Positions 10,039 to 33,716 of a DNA stretch of 64,000 nt are shown here, in pieces. How positions within the stretch are numbered: the first letter of the stretch is position 1; every line of letters begins with the position of its first letter. The notes beneath the pieces were generated by a model that saw nothing but the letters and a program-made list of their open reading frames with translations, made no database searches and was not told where the DNA came from. A program made the position numbers and the translations under genes. This DNA is from Escherichia phage FP43: the sequence record MN648445; one strand, written 5' to 3'.

Positions 10039-10512
10039 ATGTTATTATCTGGCAAATTATACAAAGAAGAAAAACAAAAATTTTATGATGCACAGAACGG
10101 TAAGTGTCCTATTTGCCACCGTGAATTAGACCCTGATGTTCAAGGTAACCATCTTGACCACGACCATGAATTAAACGGGCCAAAAGCTGGTAAGGTTCGT
10201 GGTTTACTATGTAACCTGTGCAATGCAGCAGAAGGTCAAATGAAGCATAAGTTCAACCGTTCTGGTCTTAAAGGTCAAAACGTTGATTACCTCGAATGGC
10301 TTGAAGCTCTTCTTGCTTATTTGAAACAAGACTATTCTGATAATAATGTCCATCCTAATTTTGTTCCAGACAAAACTAAAGAGTTCTCAAGACTAGGTAA
10401 AGAGGAAATGATGACCGAGATGCTTCAAAGAGGATTTGAATATAATGAATCTGATACTAAAACACAATTAATAGCTTCATTCAAAAAGCAGCTTAGAAAG
10501 AGTTTAAAATGA
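10039..10512 (+). CDS. 49: endonuclease VII (Holliday junction resolvase), gene 49
   Basis: 157 aa; near-identical to remembered T4 EndoVII (MLLTGKLYKEEKQKFYDAQNGKC...HLDHDHELNGPKAGKVRGLLCNLCN). Confidence 0.9.
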   Translation: MLLSGKLYKEEKQKFYDAQNGKCPICHRELDPDVQGNHLDHDHELNGPKAGKVRGLLCNLCNAAEGQMKHKFNRSGLKGQNVDYLEWLEALLAYLKQDYSDNNVHPNFVPDKTKEFSRLGKEEMMTEMLQRGFEYNESDTKTQLIASFKKQLRKSLK

Positions 10513-12326
10513 AAATTGAAAAAGAAATTGAAGGATTAATTTATAAAACTAATAAAGATCTTTTGAACGAGAATGCTAATAAAGATTCTCGTGTTTTTCC
10601 AACTCAACGGGACCTTATGGCTGGTATTGTGTCTAAGCACATTGCCAAAAATATGGTCCCGTCTTTTATTATGAATGCGCATGAAAGCGGAATCATTCAT
10701 ATGCATGATATTGATTATTCTCCTGCTCTTCCATTTACTAATTGTTGTTTAGTCGATTTAAAGGGGATGCTTGAGAACGGATTTAAATTAGGCAATGCTC
10801 AAATTGAAACGCCTAAATCGATTGGTGTTGCTACTGCAATTATGGCACAAATTACTGCACAGGTTGCTTCACATCAATACGGCGGAACGACTTTTGCTAA
10901 TGTAGATAAAGTACTTTCTCCTTATGTTAAACGTACATACGCTAAACATGTTGAAGATGCAGAAAAATGGCAAATCGCTGATGCGTTGAATTATGCTCAA
11001 TCTAAAACAGAAAAAGACGTATACGATGCATTCCAAGCTTATGAATATGAAGTAAATACTCTTTTTAGTTCAAACGGGCAAACGCCTTTTGTAACAATTA
11101 CATTTGGTACGGGAACCGATTGGACCGAACGAATGATTCAGAAGGCAATTCTTAAAAACCGCATTAAAGGTCTTGGTCGTGATGGAATAACTCCTATTTT
11201 TCCTAAACTTGTTATGTTTGTTGAAGAAGGTGTTAATCTTTATAAAGATGATCCAAACTATGATATTAAACAACTTGCGTTAGAATGTGCAAGCAAAAGA
11301 ATGTATCCTGACATTATTTCGGTTAAGAATAATAAAGCTATTACCGGTTCTTCAGTTCCGGTTTCTCCAATGGGTTGCCGTAGTTTCTTGAGCGTATGGA
11401 AAGATTCGACTGGTAATGAAATTCTTGATGGACGTAATAATCTTGGTGTTGTAACACTGAATCTTCCTCGCATCGCGTTAGATTCTTATATTGGAACACA
11501 GTTCAATGAACAGAAATTTGTTGAGCTATTTAATGAACGAATGGATCTGTGCTTTGAAGCCTTGATGTGCAGAATTAGTTCTTTAAAGGGCGTTAAAGCG
11601 ACTGTTGCTCCTATTCTTTACCAAGAAGGTGCATTCGGGGTTCGTCTTAAACCTGACGACGATATAATTGAGATATTTAAAAACGGTAGAAGTTCAGTGT
11701 CTTTAGGATACATTGGTATTCATGAATTGAATATTCTTGTTGGTCGTGATATTGGACAAGAAATTTTAACTAAAATGAATGCTCATCTTAAACAGTGGAC
11801 CGAAAGAACTGGATTTGCTTTTAGCTTATATTCTACTCCTGCTGAAAACCTTTGTTATCGCTTCTGTAAACTTGATACAGAAAAATATGGAAGTGTAAAA
11901 GATGTCACTGATAAAGGCTGGTACACTAACAGTTTCCATGTTTCAGTAGAAGAAAATATTACTCCGTTTGAAAAAATTTCTCGTGAAGCGCCATATCATT
12001 TCATTGCGACAGGTGGTCACATTTCTTATGTTGAACTTCCTGATATGAAAAATAACTTAAAAGGACTTGAGGCTGTCTGGGATTATGCTGCACAACATTT
12101 AGATTATTTTGGTGTTAATATGCCAGTGGATAAATGTTTTACATGCGGAAGTACTCATGAAATGACTCCTACTGAAAACGGATTTGTTTGTTCAGTTTGT
12201 GGAGAAACTGATCCTAAAAAGATGAACACCATAAGAAGAACATGCGGTTATTTGGGAAATCCGAACGAGCGCGGATTTAATCTAGGCAAAAATAAAGAAA
12301 TCATGCATAGGGTTAAACACCAATGA
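10509..12326 (+). CDS. nrdD: anaerobic ribonucleoside-triphosphate reductase
   Basis: 605 aa, uninterrupted; C-terminal glycyl-radical region and Cys cluster (CFTCGS...CSVCG); T4 NrdD is 605 aa. Confidence 0.95.
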   Translation: MKIEKEIEGLIYKTNKDLLNENANKDSRVFPTQRDLMAGIVSKHIAKNMVPSFIMNAHESGIIHMHDIDYSPALPFTNCCLVDLKGMLENGFKLGNAQIETPKSIGVATAIMAQITAQVASHQYGGTTFANVDKVLSPYVKRTYAKHVEDAEKWQIADALNYAQSKTEKDVYDAFQAYEYEVNTLFSSNGQTPFVTITFGTGTDWTERMIQKAILKNRIKGLGRDGITPIFPKLVMFVEEGVNLYKDDPNYDIKQLALECASKRMYPDIISVKNNKAITGSSVPVSPMGCRSFLSVWKDSTGNEILDGRNNLGVVTLNLPRIALDSYIGTQFNEQKFVELFNERMDLCFEALMCRISSLKGVKATVAPILYQEGAFGVRLKPDDDIIEIFKNGRSSVSLGYIGIHELNILVGRDIGQEILTKMNAHLKQWTERTGFAFSLYSTPAENLCYRFCKLDTEKYGSVKDVTDKGWYTNSFHVSVEENITPFEKISREAPYHFIATGGHISYVELPDMKNNLKGLEAVWDYAAQHLDYFGVNMPVDKCFTCGSTHEMTPTENGFVCSVCGETDPKKMNTIRRTCGYLGNPNERGFNLGKNKEIMHRVKHQ

Positions 12327-12793
12327 ATTATGATAGATTTTATCCTTGCGATTTTGTGAATGGCCCTGGTTGTAGGGTCGTTCTTTTCGTTACAGGGTGT
12401 TTGCATAAATGCGAAGGGTGTTATAATAAATCAACATGGAATGCTAGAAATGGTGTTCCATTCACTGGTGAAACACTAGAACAATTAATTGAATGTTTGA
12501 ATAATGATTATATAGAAGGATTGACTATAACTGGAGGAGACCCTCTCTATCCTGATAACCGAGATGTTATTCATTGCATTGTCCAAACAGTAAAAAATCT
12601 TTATCCCAGTAAAAGCATTTGGTTGTGGACAGGATACAAGTTTGAAGATATTAAACAACTAGAAATGCTTAAATATGTTGATGTTATTATTGATGGGAAG
12701 TATGAGAAAAATCTTCCGACCAAAAAGCTGTGGCGAGGATCAGATAATCAGCGACTTTGGTCAAATACCGATGGGGTGTGGAAACATGATTAA
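12323..12793 (+). CDS. nrdG: anaerobic RNR activating protein
   Basis: 156 aa; Cys-rich N-terminus (CDFVNGPGCRVVLFVTGCLHKCEGC); ATGA overlap with nrdD. Confidence 0.9.
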   Translation: MNYDRFYPCDFVNGPGCRVVLFVTGCLHKCEGCYNKSTWNARNGVPFTGETLEQLIECLNNDYIEGLTITGGDPLYPDNRDVIHCIVQTVKNLYPSKSIWLWTGYKFEDIKQLEMLKYVDVIIDGKYEKNLPTKKLWRGSDNQRLWSNTDGVWKHD

Positions 12794-27165: not shown

Positions 27166-27801
27166 ATGAAAACTACACCAATCACTATCGCTATTGACGC
27201 AATCGTAAAACAAGCTTCATCTCTTGCCACTATGGCTAAAGTAATTAGTCAAAACTCTGCCCGATATAATGCTATTCTTGAAACTCTTCGTCGCCCTGGA
27301 CTGAGTAATTATGAAAGCCGAGTAATTATTACAGGTGTTGGTAAGAACGCTAATATCGCAACTAAAGCTTCCGAGACTTTTGCTTCACTAGGTATTCCTA
27401 GCATGTATTTGAACACCGGGCATTATTCTCATGGCGACGCAGGATTTATTGCACCTAATGATGTATTAGTTCACATCAGTCGTTCTGGTAAGACTGAAGA
27501 AATGATAGGTGTTGCTAAACATCTTCGTATGATTCGTCCTCAGGTTAAACAGATTCTGTTACATTGTAACCCTGACATTCCGCAAGAATACGAAGCTCTT
27601 TTTGATTATACGTTCTGTACAGGCATCGCGGTAGAGGTTGATGAGAATTCTCTGGCTCCGACCATGTCCACTACATTGTTGTTAGCGCTTATCGATACGT
27701 TTGCTATCAACCTTTCGTCTGAACGTGGATTTACCTCTAATGACTTCCTTAAGTTCCACCCTGGTGGTGCACTAGGTGCCATGTTACGAGGCGAACAATG
27801 A
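27166..27801 (+). CDS. SIS-domain sugar-phosphate isomerase (arabinose-5-phosphate isomerase-like)
   Basis: 211 aa; ITGVGKNANIATK and SRSGKTEE SIS motifs; C-terminal FHPGGALGAML typical of KdsD/GutQ-type isomerases. Confidence 0.6.
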   Translation: MKTTPITIAIDAIVKQASSLATMAKVISQNSARYNAILETLRRPGLSNYESRVIITGVGKNANIATKASETFASLGIPSMYLNTGHYSHGDAGFIAPNDVLVHISRSGKTEEMIGVAKHLRMIRPQVKQILLHCNPDIPQEYEALFDYTFCTGIAVEVDENSLAPTMSTTLLLALIDTFAINLSSERGFTSNDFLKFHPGGALGAMLRGEQ

Positions 27802-27982: not shown

Positions 27983-29668
27983 ATGAAAAAAGCTGTTATT
28001 CTTGGTGCTGGACTGGCAACTCGTTTGTATCCAATAACGCACCATATTCCTAAGGTGCTTGTTAACTATAAACAAGACACTATTCTGAGCAATTTGTATA
28101 CAATTTATTCTGACCTTGGCGCAGATGAAATTATTGTAGTAGTTCATTCAAAATTTGCTGAAACTGTTCGAGCTTATTGCGAGCAAGAAGGGTTCAATGT
28201 GACTATTCGTACAGTTGATGAAGCGTATGGTTCTGCTTATGCTCTTGCTAAATTATACAAAGATTTAGATGGCCATAACGTAATTGTTAACTGGTGTGAT
28301 ATTATTCCTGACTTTGGTTCATGGTCTTGGAATGTTAACGCAATCTATGTTAAGGGTGATGAATGTCGATATAATTTCGATGGTGAAAATATCACTAACG
28401 TAGGTTCAACAGGTGGTAATGTTGTAGGAATTTATCAGTTCAAAGACTGGGAATTCTACATGGGTTCTACTGATGAGGAAATTCACGAATACTGCAAAGG
28501 TCGTGATTTCGTAGAATTCCTTTACGGCAGTGCATTCAATAAATCAGAGCTTATGAATCTAATTGATTTAGGTGATATGCCTAAACTTGAAAAGGCTCAT
28601 GAAGTTCGTGAACTGAATCGTAGTTTTAATGCAGTTGAAATTGGCGAAGAAACTGTAACTAAATTCGCGTTAACCGAACAAGGTCGAGCTCTTCAAAAAG
28701 ATGAGATTTCATGGTATTTGAAAGTGAAATCAGATTCAGTTCCTCAGTTAGTTTCGGTAAATGAAAATAATTTTGAAATGGAACGTATTAAAGGTAAGCC
28801 GGCATTTGAATATATTAAATCCAAATCAAGTCTTGCTCGTCCACAAATTGTTGATGCAATTTTAGATGCACTGAAATTCAGCACGGACACTTATTTTGTA
28901 AGTCCTGAAACTGTTCGCCGTGATTTCACTAAAGAGTTCTATACGAAAGTTATTGATCGTTGTGAAAGCATTCAGCCATTGATTGATTCATTTGGTAAAA
29001 TCACACATGTGAACTACACTAAGATTGGACGTCTGAAGCCAATGTTGAAACAAGCTTTAGAACATCTTATTCGTTATCATAACCGTTCTCAGGGACAGTA
29101 CTCTGTTATTCATGGTGACCCGAACTTCAGTAATACTATGATTACCGATAACGGCGAAGTCAAGTTTATCGACCCTCGTGGATATTTTGGTGAAACCAAG
29201 ATTTACGGGCCAAAATTGTATGATGAAGCTAAAGTGCTTTATGCTGTTTCAGGTTATGATGAATTCAATGCTAATCCGACCTGGGGTCAGTTTACTATTG
29301 ATGAAACAACTTGTAATGTGACTATTAACATCAATCCATTAGTTTACAAATATGGAAAGATGAGTTCGTTTAACGAGTATCATCATTTGGCAGTAGCAAT
29401 TATCTGGATTGCATTAGGTGGTTATTTCAAGAATAATCCACTTAAAGCGGTTGCCGCATATTATAAAGGTATGGAACTTCTGACTAAGCAATTACGTAAC
29501 ATGGGCCGTGTACTTCAAGACGGCTCTATTAGTTATGACGTAGCAGAACCTGTAACGGCTACTCTGATTACAAAAAATCCTGGTAAATGGGTACTAACTG
29601 ATAAAGAAACTGGTGTTTCCTATCGTCCAATCGGCGGCGATATCACTCATCAATGGGAACGAATCTAA
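27983..29668 (+). CDS. bifunctional sugar-1-phosphate nucleotidyltransferase / sugar kinase (fusion)
   Basis: N-term MKKAVILGAGLATRLYPITHHIPKVLV (G-x-G-T-R-L nucleotidyltransferase signature); C-term HGDPNFSNTMI...IDPRG (APH/choline-kinase-like catalytic motifs). Confidence 0.6.
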   Translation: MKKAVILGAGLATRLYPITHHIPKVLVNYKQDTILSNLYTIYSDLGADEIIVVVHSKFAETVRAYCEQEGFNVTIRTVDEAYGSAYALAKLYKDLDGHNVIVNWCDIIPDFGSWSWNVNAIYVKGDECRYNFDGENITNVGSTGGNVVGIYQFKDWEFYMGSTDEEIHEYCKGRDFVEFLYGSAFNKSELMNLIDLGDMPKLEKAHEVRELNRSFNAVEIGEETVTKFALTEQGRALQKDEISWYLKVKSDSVPQLVSVNENNFEMERIKGKPAFEYIKSKSSLARPQIVDAILDALKFSTDTYFVSPETVRRDFTKEFYTKVIDRCESIQPLIDSFGKITHVNYTKIGRLKPMLKQALEHLIRYHNRSQGQYSVIHGDPNFSNTMITDNGEVKFIDPRGYFGETKIYGPKLYDEAKVLYAVSGYDEFNANPTWGQFTIDETTCNVTININPLVYKYGKMSSFNEYHHLAVAIIWIALGGYFKNNPLKAVAAYYKGMELLTKQLRNMGRVLQDGSISYDVAEPVTATLITKNPGKWVLTDKETGVSYRPIGGDITHQWERI

Positions 29669-30054
29669 TGCACCGTGTAGAAAACATGCTTAATCTTTGT
29701 TTTGATGTCGATGATTGTATAACAGAGTGGAATAACAATCGTGATTACGTGAACTTCAAACCAGACGTCGAAATGGTGTCTGCCATTAATGCCCTGTATG
29801 ATGCAGGGCATACCATAACGCTTTACACTGCCCGTGGTATGAAGTCGGTAGGTCCTGGTCGTATAGCAATTGACATTCTCCCAAGTCTGATTCAGAACTT
29901 GGAAAACATTGGTTTGAAGTACCATAATTTGCTAACACATAAACCAGTATATGATTGGATTATCGACGACAAAGCTATGCGTCCTGACGAATTCAAAGCT
30001 CTTATGAATAAAGGCGAATTCGAAACATTTAAATCATATAAACCAAATCTATAA
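29668..30054 (+). CDS. HAD-superfamily phosphatase
   Basis: FDVDDCIT motif I (DxDx[TV]); TAATG overlap with upstream kinase gene. Confidence 0.5.
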   Translation: MHRVENMLNLCFDVDDCITEWNNNRDYVNFKPDVEMVSAINALYDAGHTITLYTARGMKSVGPGRIAIDILPSLIQNLENIGLKYHNLLTHKPVYDWIIDDKAMRPDEFKALMNKGEFETFKSYKPNL

Positions 30055-30100
30055 TAATTTAAGTAAGACCTGCAAAAACCATCGCATCAATTAACGCGAG

Positions 30101-31273
30101 ATGCAAAAAAAAATGAATACTTTTAAAATCGGAACGAATTTTGATTTAGCTCTTCTTGATAAAATCGTAGAGCTCAATAAAACCTATCCTAATAGCTTGA
30201 TAAACGAAGTATATGGCTCTACAAGAGAAATGGCTTTTGTAGCAGCCAGACCTGATTTTAGGCTTCCTGACGTTGACAAAAAGATGTTAGAAGATTACGT
30301 TAAACGTTGTAACGAATTAGGTATTTGCTTTAACTATACACTCAACACGATAAATCCTGGTTCAAAAAGAGAACTAGTTGAGTGGAAGAAGAAAGCTATT
30401 CAGGATTATGTTCAGTATCTTTGGTCAATAGGCGTATGGCGTATTACTATCGCTAACCCTGTTGTTATGGAAATTGTTCGTGAAGTCAATAAAGATATTG
30501 AGATTGAAGTTTCAACAATTCTACATGTTGATGCTGTAACTCAAATCAAATACTTGCATGACCAATATAACATCAAAAAGGTCTGTTGCGGAATTCATAA
30601 GAACCGTTCAGTTTCTTTCCTGAAGCGTGCAGCAGAGTTTTGCAATAAGAACAATATAATATTTGAAGTTCTTGTAAATGAGTTCTGTTCTAATGCTGGT
30701 AAAGGGTATACAACACATTGTAGCTATCGTGACTCTTGCTATATTTTCCATAGTACTGATGTTACCGCTGATGATGCTAAATCCTTAAATGGATATCCTA
30801 TGCAGCACTGTATTAAAGCTCGTGATACAGACCCATTTAACTGGTTGAGAACTCGTTTTGTTCGTCCTCAAGATTTGAAACTTTATAATGATATTGGTAT
30901 CACTCAATTTAAAGTTTCAGGACGTACAGGTAGCACAGACTACATTTTGAAAGTTCTTGAAGCATACGCTTCTGAAAAGTTTGAAGGTAATTTGTTAGAA
31001 CTGTGGAAGCCTTTAGAGACTATTTTCACTCTTGAAAATGAGACTGAGTTTTCACATACAGTAAATATTGAAACCTCTTTGTTAGATGGCTTTTTAGAAA
31101 AAAGGTGGTTCAGACATCCAGATTTTGATTGTGCTAATGAAATCTGTGGGTCAACGTGTACATATTGTGAAAGGTATTATAAACGTCAATTATCTAAAAA
31201 CGGGTTAGCAGAAAACTCCATATCTATTATTGATATAACTAACTCTGATGACGCTTTGAGGTACCCGGAATGA
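30101..31273 (+). CDS. Cys-rich TIM-barrel-like protein (tentatively peptidase-U32-like; C-terminal C-x4-C-x3-C-x2-C cluster), possible Fe-S enzyme
   Basis: 390 aa; alternating beta/alpha pattern; CANEICGSTCTYC near C-terminus; alternative start at 30113. Confidence 0.5.
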   Translation: MQKKMNTFKIGTNFDLALLDKIVELNKTYPNSLINEVYGSTREMAFVAARPDFRLPDVDKKMLEDYVKRCNELGICFNYTLNTINPGSKRELVEWKKKAIQDYVQYLWSIGVWRITIANPVVMEIVREVNKDIEIEVSTILHVDAVTQIKYLHDQYNIKKVCCGIHKNRSVSFLKRAAEFCNKNNIIFEVLVNEFCSNAGKGYTTHCSYRDSCYIFHSTDVTADDAKSLNGYPMQHCIKARDTDPFNWLRTRFVRPQDLKLYNDIGITQFKVSGRTGSTDYILKVLEAYASEKFEGNLLELWKPLETIFTLENETEFSHTVNIETSLLDGFLEKRWFRHPDFDCANEICGSTCTYCERYYKRQLSKNGLAENSISIIDITNSDDALRYPE

Positions 31274-31509
31274 TTTCTAGAAAAAGTTTTAATTATAAAC
31301 TTAACGAAGAGATTTTGACTATGAAACTGAACACTAACGAACAAATTCTTAAAAAGGCCCTTATGGGCCTGTTTGAAACCAAAGCGGCTAAAGTGATTAA
31401 AGAACCTGTTCAATTGGAATACTACACTGATGCATTCCTTCATAGTGTTCTTGGAAGTATAGATTCTGAAGCTTTACGTTATATCAACATTGTCAAGAAA
31501 TTCAAATAA
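31270..31509 (+). CDS. small hypothetical protein
   Basis: 79-aa ORF, ATGA overlap. Confidence 0.35.
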   Translation: MISRKSFNYKLNEEILTMKLNTNEQILKKALMGLFETKAAKVIKEPVQLEYYTDAFLHSVLGSIDSEALRYINIVKKFK

Positions 31510-31568: not shown

Positions 31569-32267
31569 ATGAAATATATCAAAGCCGCAGATTTTCAAGC
31601 CGCATTTAAAGCAGTCAATCGTGAAATTTTAGAAAACCCCGAATTCGTAACTGATTCTCGTATTGGACGTTGTAATGAAATCGGGTCCATGACAGTAGTT
31701 GTTGACAATCCATCATCATTCAAAATGACCGACCCACGTATTAACCGCATCTCTTATGAATATGCCGAAGACTTCTGGAAGTTTATGATTTCTGGTGGTA
31801 CTGATGCAGAAGAAGCGTTTAAGGCATATCCTAATGTCGCTAAATTCATTTCTAAACCAAAATCAGATGCTTTGCCTGCGAACTTCAACACTTTCTACGG
31901 TCCTCGCATTGTGGCCCAATTACCAGCTCTTCTAAAAGAACTTAAAGAGAAACCTAACTCTCGAAGAGTTGTGTTCCAAATTCTAGAAAGTTCTGATCAG
32001 GCTTTGCTTGATTCAGACGAAACACTTGAATATCCATGTACTGACTCAGTGACTTATTATATTCGTGATGGTAAGCTTTATACCCACTGCCATATGCGTT
32101 CTCAGAACTGTGCTGTTGTTATGCAGTTGGATTTTTATCTCCAAGGAAAATTACTTCATTATATCGCTAACGAATGTGGTGTAGAAGTTGGTGATTATAC
32201 TCATACCATGGTAAGTGCCCATGTGTTTGAACGTGATTTTGATTATGTTAAAGGATTCCTTGACTAA
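31569..32267 (+). CDS. 42: dCMP hydroxymethylase-like (thymidylate-synthase fold), gene 42
   Basis: 232 aa; PNSRRVVFQI and CTDSVTYYIRDGKLY...MRSQN align with remembered T4 gp42 active-site region; syntenic. Confidence 0.75.
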   Translation: MKYIKAADFQAAFKAVNREILENPEFVTDSRIGRCNEIGSMTVVVDNPSSFKMTDPRINRISYEYAEDFWKFMISGGTDAEEAFKAYPNVAKFISKPKSDALPANFNTFYGPRIVAQLPALLKELKEKPNSRRVVFQILESSDQALLDSDETLEYPCTDSVTYYIRDGKLYTHCHMRSQNCAVVMQLDFYLQGKLLHYIANECGVEVGDYTHTMVSAHVFERDFDYVKGFLD

Positions 32268-33167: not shown

Positions 33168-33716
33168 ATGGCTAAAATTATTTTAGTAGACGGCCCGGAT
33201 AATGCCGGTAAAACAACTTTCATTAATGACATAATGGAAATTAGTGAAAGATATGTGAAGATTGATTTCCCTAAACGAACAGTTGATGGACGTTTCGATG
33301 TTAAGTCTCGAAATGAAGTTGGCTGTTTCGAAACGATGTTGAATTATTTAGACCCTACTAAGATTTATCTGTTAGACCGTGGATATATTAGTAACTGGGT
33401 TTATGGACGTATTCGACAAGATGCGGACTCGGTTCTTGACGTTTATGAACAGGACTATGTTCGTCTTTGCCAAAACCATGATGTGTTCACAATTATTTTA
33501 ACACGTAACGAAATGACTGAAAGTTTTGAAGACGACCTTATTACTTTGTCTTCATTCGGTTTTAATACAGTCATTTCACATTTTGAAGAGTTTGCAATTC
33601 ATAACAAAATCCAAACGTATCAATTACTTAATCATGATGGTGCTAACAAAGTTATAGGATTTAATGCAAGCGAACGTAATGGTTTGATTACAGAAATCAT
33701 CAAATGGGCTCGTTAA
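33168..33716 (+). CDS. P-loop nucleotide/nucleoside kinase (thymidylate-kinase-like)
   Basis: Walker A GPDNAGKTT; LLDRGYISNWVYG resembles the TMPK DR[YH] motif. Confidence 0.5.
   Translation: MAKIILVDGPDNAGKTTFINDIMEISERYVKIDFPKRTVDGRFDVKSRNEVGCFETMLNYLDPTKIYLLDRGYISNWVYGRIRQDADSVLDVYEQDYVRLCQNHDVFTIILTRNEMTESFEDDLITLSSFGFNTVISHFEEFAIHNKIQTYQLLNHDGANKVIGFNASERNGLITEIIKWAR

Follow-up and report, generated by a model that had tools for sequence, protein, structure and literature searches.

The subject of this analysis is a protein of the peptidase U32 family encoded in a stretch of 64,000 nucleotides of Escherichia phage FP43 (sequence record MN648445), the whole of which we refer to as the window. 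Its gene, an open reading frame (ORF) at 30101..31273 on the plus strand, lies within a cluster for the arabinosylation of phage DNA. We consider it highly probable that the protein is a prephenate-dependent U32 redox enzyme and, by analogy with the characterized U32 hydroxylases, reasonably probable that it is an oxygen-independent hydroxylase acting on C5 of cytosine. The hydroxylase reading is put forward because relatives of the gene are linked to genes for prephenate supply, the neighboring enzyme for the same proposed product needs O2, the cytosine of the phage DNA is replaced completely, the phage carries NrdDG, and relatives with strictly aerobic hosts do not have the gene. The only route to 5-hydroxycytosine that has been described for phage DNA requires O2, yet all of the cytosine is replaced and the hosts reside in a gut that is largely oxygen-free.

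Family membership and predicted fold

The ORF is present exactly as first described, including the C-terminal C-x4-C-x3-C-x2-C motif that the original prediction had singled out (CANEICGSTCTYC, residues 344-356 of the 390-residue translation, nucleotides 31130-31168). The window shares 99% identity with Escherichia phage p000v, which belongs to Mosigvirus (RB69-like T-even phages); the encoded protein corresponds to gp169 of p000v and is a homologue of RB69 ORF050c. The ATG at 30113 (MNTFK..., 386 residues), and not the ATG at 30101, is probably the true start, as it is here that gp169 is annotated to begin and that the homologues start.

The first description had noted an alternating beta/alpha pattern and had put forward a U32 and a radical-SAM assignment, neither of which it regarded as secure. 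The U32 assignment can now be made with confidence. The match to PF01136 (peptidase U32) scores 42.2 bits against a Pfam gathering cutoff of 22.4 over residues 98-290, and the domain is carried by all listed homologues. The alternating pattern recurs in a confident AlphaFold2 model of the TIM-barrel type (pLDDT 93.2, pTM 0.91). In a structural comparison of this model the leading matches were U32 proteins and generic TIM barrels, which identifies the predicted fold as a U32-type TIM barrel. No radical-SAM fold was found among these leading matches, and ThiC, the only Fe4S4 enzyme listed, ranked 38, no better than dozens of unrelated barrels. Moreover, a Pfam search of the protein gave no match to PF04055 (Radical_SAM) at E<=1. 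Sequence searches of the PDB, with the single protein and then with the family profile, returned noise only; the archaeal U32 protein Mk0906 (PDB 5D88) is not detectable by sequence, and it differs from the phage protein in its length of 247 residues, its identity of 14% and the lack of a C-terminal four-cysteine region.

The databases label the protein and its homologues 'peptidase' or 'protease of the collagenase family' (PHROG: 'peptidase'), and the last three cysteines of the C-terminal motif are spaced C-x3-C-x2-C, as the radical-SAM lead had stressed. Nevertheless, a genuine collagenase-like peptidase or a radical-SAM enzyme is extremely unlikely. The family name is historical, and the characterized members have been tied to hydroxylation (PMC10990095, PMC5727448, PMC6599085). 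The radical-SAM lead finds no counterpart in the Pfam and fold searches, and the motif was rejected as a three-cysteine radical-SAM site on the further grounds of its C-terminal position (residues 344-356 of 390) and its four invariant cysteines, which point to a fully ligated site and not to a site with an open iron.

In a representative library 1186 relatives of the protein were found at E<=1e-3. As judged from its sequences, the family is a separate and mostly phage-borne U32 subfamily. The identity of the phage protein to characterized U32 proteins is 16-19%, the NCBIfam UbiU model reaches 18.4 bits where its cutoff is 440, there is no match to a model for RlhA or TrhP, and a hidden Markov model (HMM) of the family detects TrhP alone in E. 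coli (E 2e-6). The RNA-binding C-terminal extensions that are seen in TrhP and RlhA are lacking, an architecture that fits a small-molecule substrate.

Two groups of conserved cysteines

Alignment of 82 family members (45-88% identity) revealed nine invariant cysteines: C162, C196, C207, C213, C237, C344, C349, C353 and C356. For most of them, conservation extends to 123 cluster representatives with identities as low as about 27%, among which C207 and C237 are found in 123/123, C196 in 122/123, and the four C-terminal cysteines in 114-116. The cysteines form two groups, the first of which, consisting of C162, C196, C207, C213 and C237, had been overlooked in the original prediction. The corresponding features are:

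30584-30586, plus strand: C162 of the central cysteine group (invariance)
30686..30811, plus strand: central cysteine group C196, C207, C213 and C237 (invariance, alignment with U32 ligands)
31130..31168, plus strand: C-terminal C-x4-C-x3-C-x2-C motif of C344, C349, C353 and C356 (sequence, invariance)

The central group probably constitutes the [4Fe-4S] site of the U32 domain. C196, C213 and C237 align with C169, C176 and C193 of UbiU and with cysteines of RlhA and TrhP. Thus three of the UbiU ligands (C169, C176, C193 and C232) are aligned in the phage protein and the fourth is without counterpart; the family-invariant C207 or C162 could stand in for it. The U32 signature, which we take to be E-x-F-x2-G-[SA]-[LIVM]-C-x4-G-x-C-x-[LIVM]-S and hence C-x6-C, does not describe the phage protein, where the sequence reads E189-VLVNEF-C196 ... 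C213-YIFHS. The spacing is C-x10-C-x5-C instead of C-x6-C, and the flanks are recognizable. Cysteines of this motif have been reported as essential in RlhA (C169 and C176; PMC5727448) and in UbiU (C176; PMC10990095).

The C-terminal motif is, on the alignments, conserved far above chance, and it is predicted to form a second, fully cysteine-ligated metal site that holds either a [4Fe-4S] cluster or Zn; the AlphaFold2 model has a pLDDT of about 95 across residues 340-360. RlhA likewise has a second cysteine group near its C-terminus besides the cysteines of the U32 motif, and two of its C-terminal cysteines, Cys580 and Cys611, are essential (PMC5727448). A redox or iron-sulfur (Fe-S) role for the phage protein, as had been proposed, is likely.

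The arabinosyl-5-hydroxycytosine cluster

The DNA of RB69 contains arabinosyl-5-hydroxycytosine and not hydroxymethylcytosine (Lee et al., NAR 2026, PMC13326640). According to the NMR data, the modification is beta-D-Araf-(1-3)-alpha-D-Araf-5-hydroxy-dC, in which the arabinose itself is unmodified (PMC13326640). UDP-arabinose is formed by an isomerase together with AfhE-like and AfhF-like enzymes, whereas the base is hydroxylated by gp48, a thymidylate-synthase (TS) homologue that makes 5-hydroxy-dCMP, binds flavin and incorporates 18O from O2 (PMC13326640). In the window, the order of the genes is DNA polymerase, SIS isomerase, NTP-transferase/kinase, HAD phosphatase, U32, a 79-residue ORF, TS homologue, putative glycosyltransferase and kinase. 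The genes for anaerobic ribonucleotide reduction, NrdD and NrdG, precede the U32 gene by about 18 kb and equip the phage for dNTP synthesis without O2:

10509-12326, plus strand: NrdD, anaerobic ribonucleotide reductase, 605 residues (PF13597 (NRDD) 571 bits, Gly_radical, p000v annotation)
12323-12793, plus strand: NrdG, the NrdD activase (Pfam Fer4_12, Radical_SAM, p000v annotation)
27166..27801, plus strand: SIS-domain arabinose-5-phosphate isomerase, equivalent of RB69 gp55 (Pfam SIS, p000v annotation, PMC13326640)
27983..29668, plus strand: bifunctional sugar kinase/nucleotidyltransferase, AfhE-like, equivalent of RB69 gp52:53 (Pfam NTP_transferase and kinase-like C-terminus, PMC13326640)
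29653..30054, plus strand: HAD-type phosphatase, AfhF-like, equivalent of RB69 gp51 (NCBIfam TIGR01689, PHROG 1238, PMC13326640)
30101..31273, plus strand: peptidase-U32-family protein, predicted to be an Fe-S protein, homologue of RB69 ORF050c and p000v gp169 (PF01136 match, homology)
31270..31509, plus strand: 79-residue ORF of the RB69ORF049c family (phrog_8601)
31569..32267, plus strand: TS homologue, equivalent of RB69 gp48 (Pfam Thymidylat_synt, PMC13326640)
32267..33166, plus strand: probable DNA arabinosyltransferase (position matching RB69 gp46:47 only; no Pfam match)
33168..33716, plus strand: thymidylate-kinase-like nucleotide kinase, equivalent of RB69 gp45 (p000v annotation; no Pfam match at 1e-3)

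The TS homologue, two genes downstream of the U32 gene, is 97% identical to the copy in p000v.

The isomerase, NTP-transferase/kinase and phosphatase genes upstream bear out the setting in a sugar module from which the original prediction had started. The proposal derived from it, that the sugar is tailored beyond glycosylation, is a different matter. A sugar or heterocycle reductase, or a sugar-tailoring enzyme of the arabinose pathway, which is also the label of the gene in Table 1 of PMC13326640, is in our view decidedly unlikely. The U32 gene separates the gene for the HAD phosphatase from that for the base-modifying enzyme, and AfhE-like and arabinose-5-phosphate isomerase genes co-occur with distant U32 homologues in 17 and 10 loci, respectively, as a sugar role would have it. 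However, the end product holds unmodified D-arabinofuranose, and the formation of UDP-arabinose in phage HY126 has been ascribed to AfhE and AfhF alone, U32 not being mentioned (PMC13326640). Moreover, phages with an identical sugar module make the same modification without a U32 gene, among them Acinetobacter phage DLP3 (PMC13326640), whereas other U32 homologues reside in purely nucleotide contexts devoid of sugar genes. Finally, pentose chemistry offers no reason why the gene should be linked to chorismate mutase and DAHP synthase. What now appears favored is the option that had been given in parentheses, oxidation of the base. Of the original prediction, the U32, Fe-S/redox and base-oxidation elements are supported and the radical-SAM and sugar-tailoring elements are not.

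Linkage to prephenate supply

All characterized U32 hydroxylases need prephenate, and the O2-independent hydroxylations to which U32 enzymes are tied also require Fe-S clusters (PMC10990095, PMC5727448, PMC6599085). In Serratia phage LC53 the gene that follows U32 encodes a chorismate mutase (Pfam CM_2, 44.6 bits). With tblastn the same chorismate mutase was found in 54 phage records, covering nearly every U32-bearing lineage other than Mosigvirus (phages of Klebsiella, Serratia, Yersinia, Enterobacter, Proteus, Erwinia, Edwardsiella, Providencia, Pectobacterium, Morganella, Kosakonia and Shewanella, and EcS1). In the loci examined and according to the annotations of the records, it sits in the neighborhood of U32 and the TS homologue, mostly between both. 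In Shewanella phage Thanatos-1, where the cluster is rearranged, the pair of U32 and chorismate mutase has been relocated as a unit. The phage chorismate mutases retain R11, R28, K39, S84 and Q88, which we take to be the active-site residues of the E. coli enzyme.

The linkage extends well beyond the T4-like phages. A scan of viral contigs yielded 47 loci, of which about 38 were counted as distant, with U32 proteins of 40-55% identity; many of these lie on contigs of 127-294 kb. A gene for prephenate supply is found beside the distant U32 gene in 13 of the about 38 loci, always within about 620 bp. Stand-alone chorismate mutases are present in L053, L054, L057, L058, L061 and L063, a DAHP synthase in L007 and L035, and fusions of the two (PF00793 + PF01817) in five contigs:

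DAHP synthase-chorismate mutase fusions: L047 8411-9433; L048 9-971; L049 7302-8357; L051 8332-9387; L060 11085-12203

Such fused shikimate-pathway genes in large uncultured phages appear to be without a published explanation. The DAHP_synth_1 gene of L007 was also considered as a KDO-8-P synthase, i.e. a user of arabinose-5-phosphate, and rejected as such on its NCBIfam scores (237 bits for DAHP synthase versus 63 for KDO8P synthase).

The wider genomic context was summarized for 117 nearest neighbors in 27 non-redundant loci. The top Pfam families are Thymidylate_kin (9), DAHP_synth_1 (6), SIS (5) and CM_2 (4). Next in frequency are ATP-grasp, dCMP deaminase, NTP_transferase, dUTPase/DCD, and glycosyltransferases that include TAGT (the TET-associated-type DNA glycosyltransferase). 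A TS homologue was not detectable within 10 kb of U32 in any of the distant (non-T4-like) loci, which implies that something else must create the acceptor hydroxyl there.

The 79-residue ORF downstream of U32 overlaps the U32 stop codon with its start (ATGA) and directly follows U32 in Mosigvirus, Tegunavirus (Yersinia), Pectobacterium phage PM2 and the metagenomic T4-like contig L036. It contains no cysteine and may assist the U32 enzyme as an accessory factor. That it is a degenerate chorismate mutase was considered and rejected: there is no Pfam match and no BLAST similarity, the hhalign probability is 0.4%, and Yersinia phages carry both genes.

Distribution among phages

Phage records with the TS homologue number 373, of which 57 are from Acinetobacter and 20 from Rhizobium phages. 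Those with U32 number 221, all from phages of facultative anaerobes and none from Acinetobacter, Rhizobium or Pseudomonas phages. The cluster is present without U32 or chorismate mutase in Acinetobacter phage AB-Navy97, Pseudomonas phage PspYZU05 and the E. coli Dhakavirus WG01; in the last (L012 5878-10589) genes for the AfhE-like enzyme, HAD phosphatase, kinase, TS homologue and glycosyltransferase are all retained. The Dhakaviruses form a natural comparison set for the oxygen dependence of phage growth.

The distribution also bears on the possibility of an RNA hydroxylase of the TrhP/RlhA kind, which would act on tRNA or rRNA of phage or host and would be unrelated to the DNA modification. 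TrhP is the sole relative that the family HMM detects in E. coli, and both known U32 enzymes of nucleic acids act on RNA (PMC5727448, PMC6599085). Yet the host already has TrhP and RlhA, the C-terminal domains of these enzymes are lacking in the phage protein, the gene is consistently located among genes for DNA precursors and DNA glycosylation, and it is absent from aerobe-infecting relatives that have the same translation needs. We regard such a role as very unlikely.

A putative oxygen-independent route to 5-hydroxy-dCMP

Considering the above, we propose the following scheme. The U32 enzyme would hydroxylate cytosine at C5 without O2, most probably at the level of dCMP. The oxygen atom would be taken from prephenate, which would leave as phenylpyruvate and CO2, and the cysteine-bound cluster or clusters would take away two electrons. 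The 5-hydroxy-dCMP would then pass through the dNMP kinase and the DNA polymerase, after which arabinose would be transferred to the 5-hydroxyl group. The U32 protein would, in this way, be the oxygen-independent partner of the flavin- and O2-dependent, TS-like 5-hydroxy-dCMP synthase next door, and would enable the phage to replicate in an anoxic host, e.g. E. coli in the gut. The frequent occurrence of dNMP kinases as neighbors, together with the lack of an RNA-binding extension, suggests that the substrate is a mononucleotide, dCMP being the simplest choice. The data themselves establish the family, the predicted fold, the conserved cysteines and the linkage to genes of prephenate supply and nucleotide metabolism; substrate, oxygen donor, Fe-S clusters and anaerobic role are inferred from them.

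The same chemistry could be applied to another substrate or at another stage (cytosine in DNA after replication, dCTP, dCDP, dUMP or another pyrimidine), or could provide extra flux at all oxygen levels. Such variants are on the whole unlikely, although several observations are compatible with them. RlhA and TrhP act on polynucleotides (PMC5727448, PMC6599085), and the dCMP deaminase gene that adjoins U32 in some huge phages could point to dUMP. Moreover, UbiU and UbiV can work aerobically when expressed (PMC10990095). In addition, matches to FNR-type sites are no more frequent in the window than by chance (98, versus 86 expected), and none of these is located upstream of the U32 gene, which thus shows no sign of anaerobic regulation. 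On the other hand, thymidylate-kinase-like dNMP kinases are the neighbors found most often, and they imply a product at the monophosphate level. A nucleic-acid-binding extension is lacking, and U32 is absent from all of the strict-aerobe phages examined.

Several points weigh against the proposed role as an oxygen-independent cytosine hydroxylase. At the level of the protein, the fourth canonical cysteine is missing and its replacement by C207 or C162 is hypothetical, the canonical C-x6-C is broken by an insert of 10 residues that carries C207, and the phage protein is not an orthologue of RlhA, TrhP, UbiU or UbiV. For no U32 protein has hydroxylase activity so far been reconstituted in vitro (PMC10990095). 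In Table 1 of the RB69 study the gene (RB69p050) is labeled 'sugar or heterocycle reductase', for which no experiment is given; the discussion mentions other pathways of pyrimidine hydroxylation for RNA and does not tie them to RB69p050 (PMC13326640). The co-occurrence of U32 with sugar-activation genes would, taken alone, fit a role in sugar metabolism equally well. With respect to distribution, U32 is not obligatory for coliphages, given that the cluster of the E. coli Dhakaviruses does without it. The Mosigviruses, with the window included, lack the chorismate mutase, as does Klebsiella phage Marfa, and no chorismate mutase was found elsewhere in the 64,000 nucleotides of the window; a Mosigvirus would rely on PheA and TyrA of the host. 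Finally, a stoichiometric use of prephenate is demanding, as by our own estimate roughly 6 million cytosines are to be hydroxylated per burst.

Comparison with characterized U32 systems

The closest parallel in terms of the product is RlhA, the E. coli 5-hydroxycytidine synthase for C2501 of 23S rRNA, which needs prephenate and Fe-S biogenesis (PMC5727448). RlhA and the phage protein share the U32 domain, the conserved motif cysteines and, as proposed, the same chemistry on the same base (5-hydroxylation of cytosine). RlhA is, however, a protein of 653 residues, much of it a C-terminal region, and modifies the rRNA of 50S precursors, whereas the phage protein comprises 386-390 residues, carries the 10-residue insert in its cysteine motif and has a proposed deoxynucleotide substrate; the HMM of its family gives no significant match to RlhA.

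TrhP makes 5-hydroxyuridine in tRNA without O2 in a prephenate-dependent reaction and is paired with the O2-dependent TrhO (PMC6599085). The arrangement proposed for the phages is similar, in that a prephenate-dependent U32 route and an unrelated O2 route would lead to the same 5-hydroxypyrimidine in facultative anaerobes. It differs in that the O2-dependent partner in the phage is a flavin-binding TS homologue and not a rhodanese, and in that the substrates would be DNA precursors instead of tRNA.

UbiU and UbiV catalyze the anaerobic hydroxylation of ubiquinone, for which prephenate was identified as the oxygen donor by 18O labeling (PMC10990095). They are U32 [4Fe-4S] proteins with a small-molecule substrate, as is proposed here, and replace flavin mono-oxygenases in anoxia. 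In contrast to the phage protein, they form a heterodimer that works with the lipid-binding UbiT, and the fourth ligand is not as in the phage protein.

The TS-like 5-hydroxy-dCMP synthases (RB69 gp48, DLP3 gp80 and that of HY126) would share the product with U32 and are encoded in the same cluster. They differ from U32 in having an unrelated fold, a flavin cofactor and a requirement for O2, and they are found in phages of strict aerobes that lack U32.

Implications

More generally, and more tentatively, the phage U32 family might represent viral hydroxylases of pyrimidine C5 in DNA precursors that use an organic oxygen donor. If so, U32 would serve the T-even relatives as an anaerobic counterpart to the O2- and flavin-dependent TS-like enzyme, and for huge phages that lack the TS-like enzyme it would be the only source of 5-hydroxypyrimidine for sugar attachment. 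The phage chorismate mutases and DAHP synthase fusions would be auxiliary genes that feed stoichiometric amounts of prephenate into DNA modification, which would explain the presence of shikimate-pathway genes in phage genomes. The use of prephenate as oxygen donor, which for ubiquinone was demonstrated only in 2024 and for two RNA modifications is an inference, would extend to DNA and to viruses, and dCMP as a small-molecule substrate could permit the in vitro reconstitution of this class of enzymes. Also, Mosigviruses that are candidates for therapy would be expected to differ at anoxic sites of infection from relatives without the gene, e.g. Dhakavirus.

In full-text literature searches no paper was found that links U32 or chorismate mutase with these phages. 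The U32 gene as such is known and annotated; the function proposed here and the synteny of U32 with genes for prephenate supply appear to be unreported in the searchable literature.

Further observations on distant loci and on the window

Some of the distant loci have a distinct gene content. In L007 (6939-12801), an 80-kb phage contig with a DnaE-type polymerase, genes for an arabinose-5-phosphate isomerase, an AfhE-like enzyme, U32, DAHP synthase and an NAD-epimerase are found in a row, and no TS homologue was found within 10 kb; the locus may represent a pathway to arabinosyl-hydroxypyrimidine that depends solely on U32. The genes that flank U32 in L018 (7777-16179) encode two glycosyltransferases (TAGT, 33.9 bits, and one of the DXD type), a UDP-galactopyranose mutase and dUTPase/DCD. 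The set recalls the galactose/glucose-5hoC system found in Rhizobium phage RL38J1, although L018 has no TS homologue nearby. A bacterial, Clostridia-like contig, L008 (9185-17428; also L009), has a dockerin/GH43 neighbor and encodes a U32 homologue and a second U32 paralogue, together with a radical-SAM/SPASM protein, a deoxynucleoside kinase, an NT5C 5'-nucleotidase, a PnuC-like transporter and a nucleoside 2-deoxyribosyltransferase. The locus resembles a cluster for the modification or salvage of nucleosides.

Radical-SAM/SPASM genes are found within a few kb of U32 in unrelated contigs (L006 1314-2249; L008 14160-15185; L019 7980-9011), and RimK-type ATP-grasp genes occur in four of the U32 neighbor sets. 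Both types of neighbor hint at further chemistry on the hydroxylated base. In Serratia phage LC53 (L002 5352-5990) and Yersinia phage phiR1-RT (L015 3207-3845) a segB-like homing endonuclease gene, absent from the window, is inserted between the HAD phosphatase and U32 genes.

A scan of the cluster in the window for promoters and terminators yielded nothing above the expectation from shuffled sequence; one TTTAAA-16-TATAAT site is present at 30028-30055, from which we draw no conclusion. Two antisense ORFs overlie the HAD and the U32/79-residue genes, at 29665-29925 (minus strand, 86 residues) and 31186-31443 (minus strand, 85 residues), and are most likely chance ORFs in AT-rich sequence.

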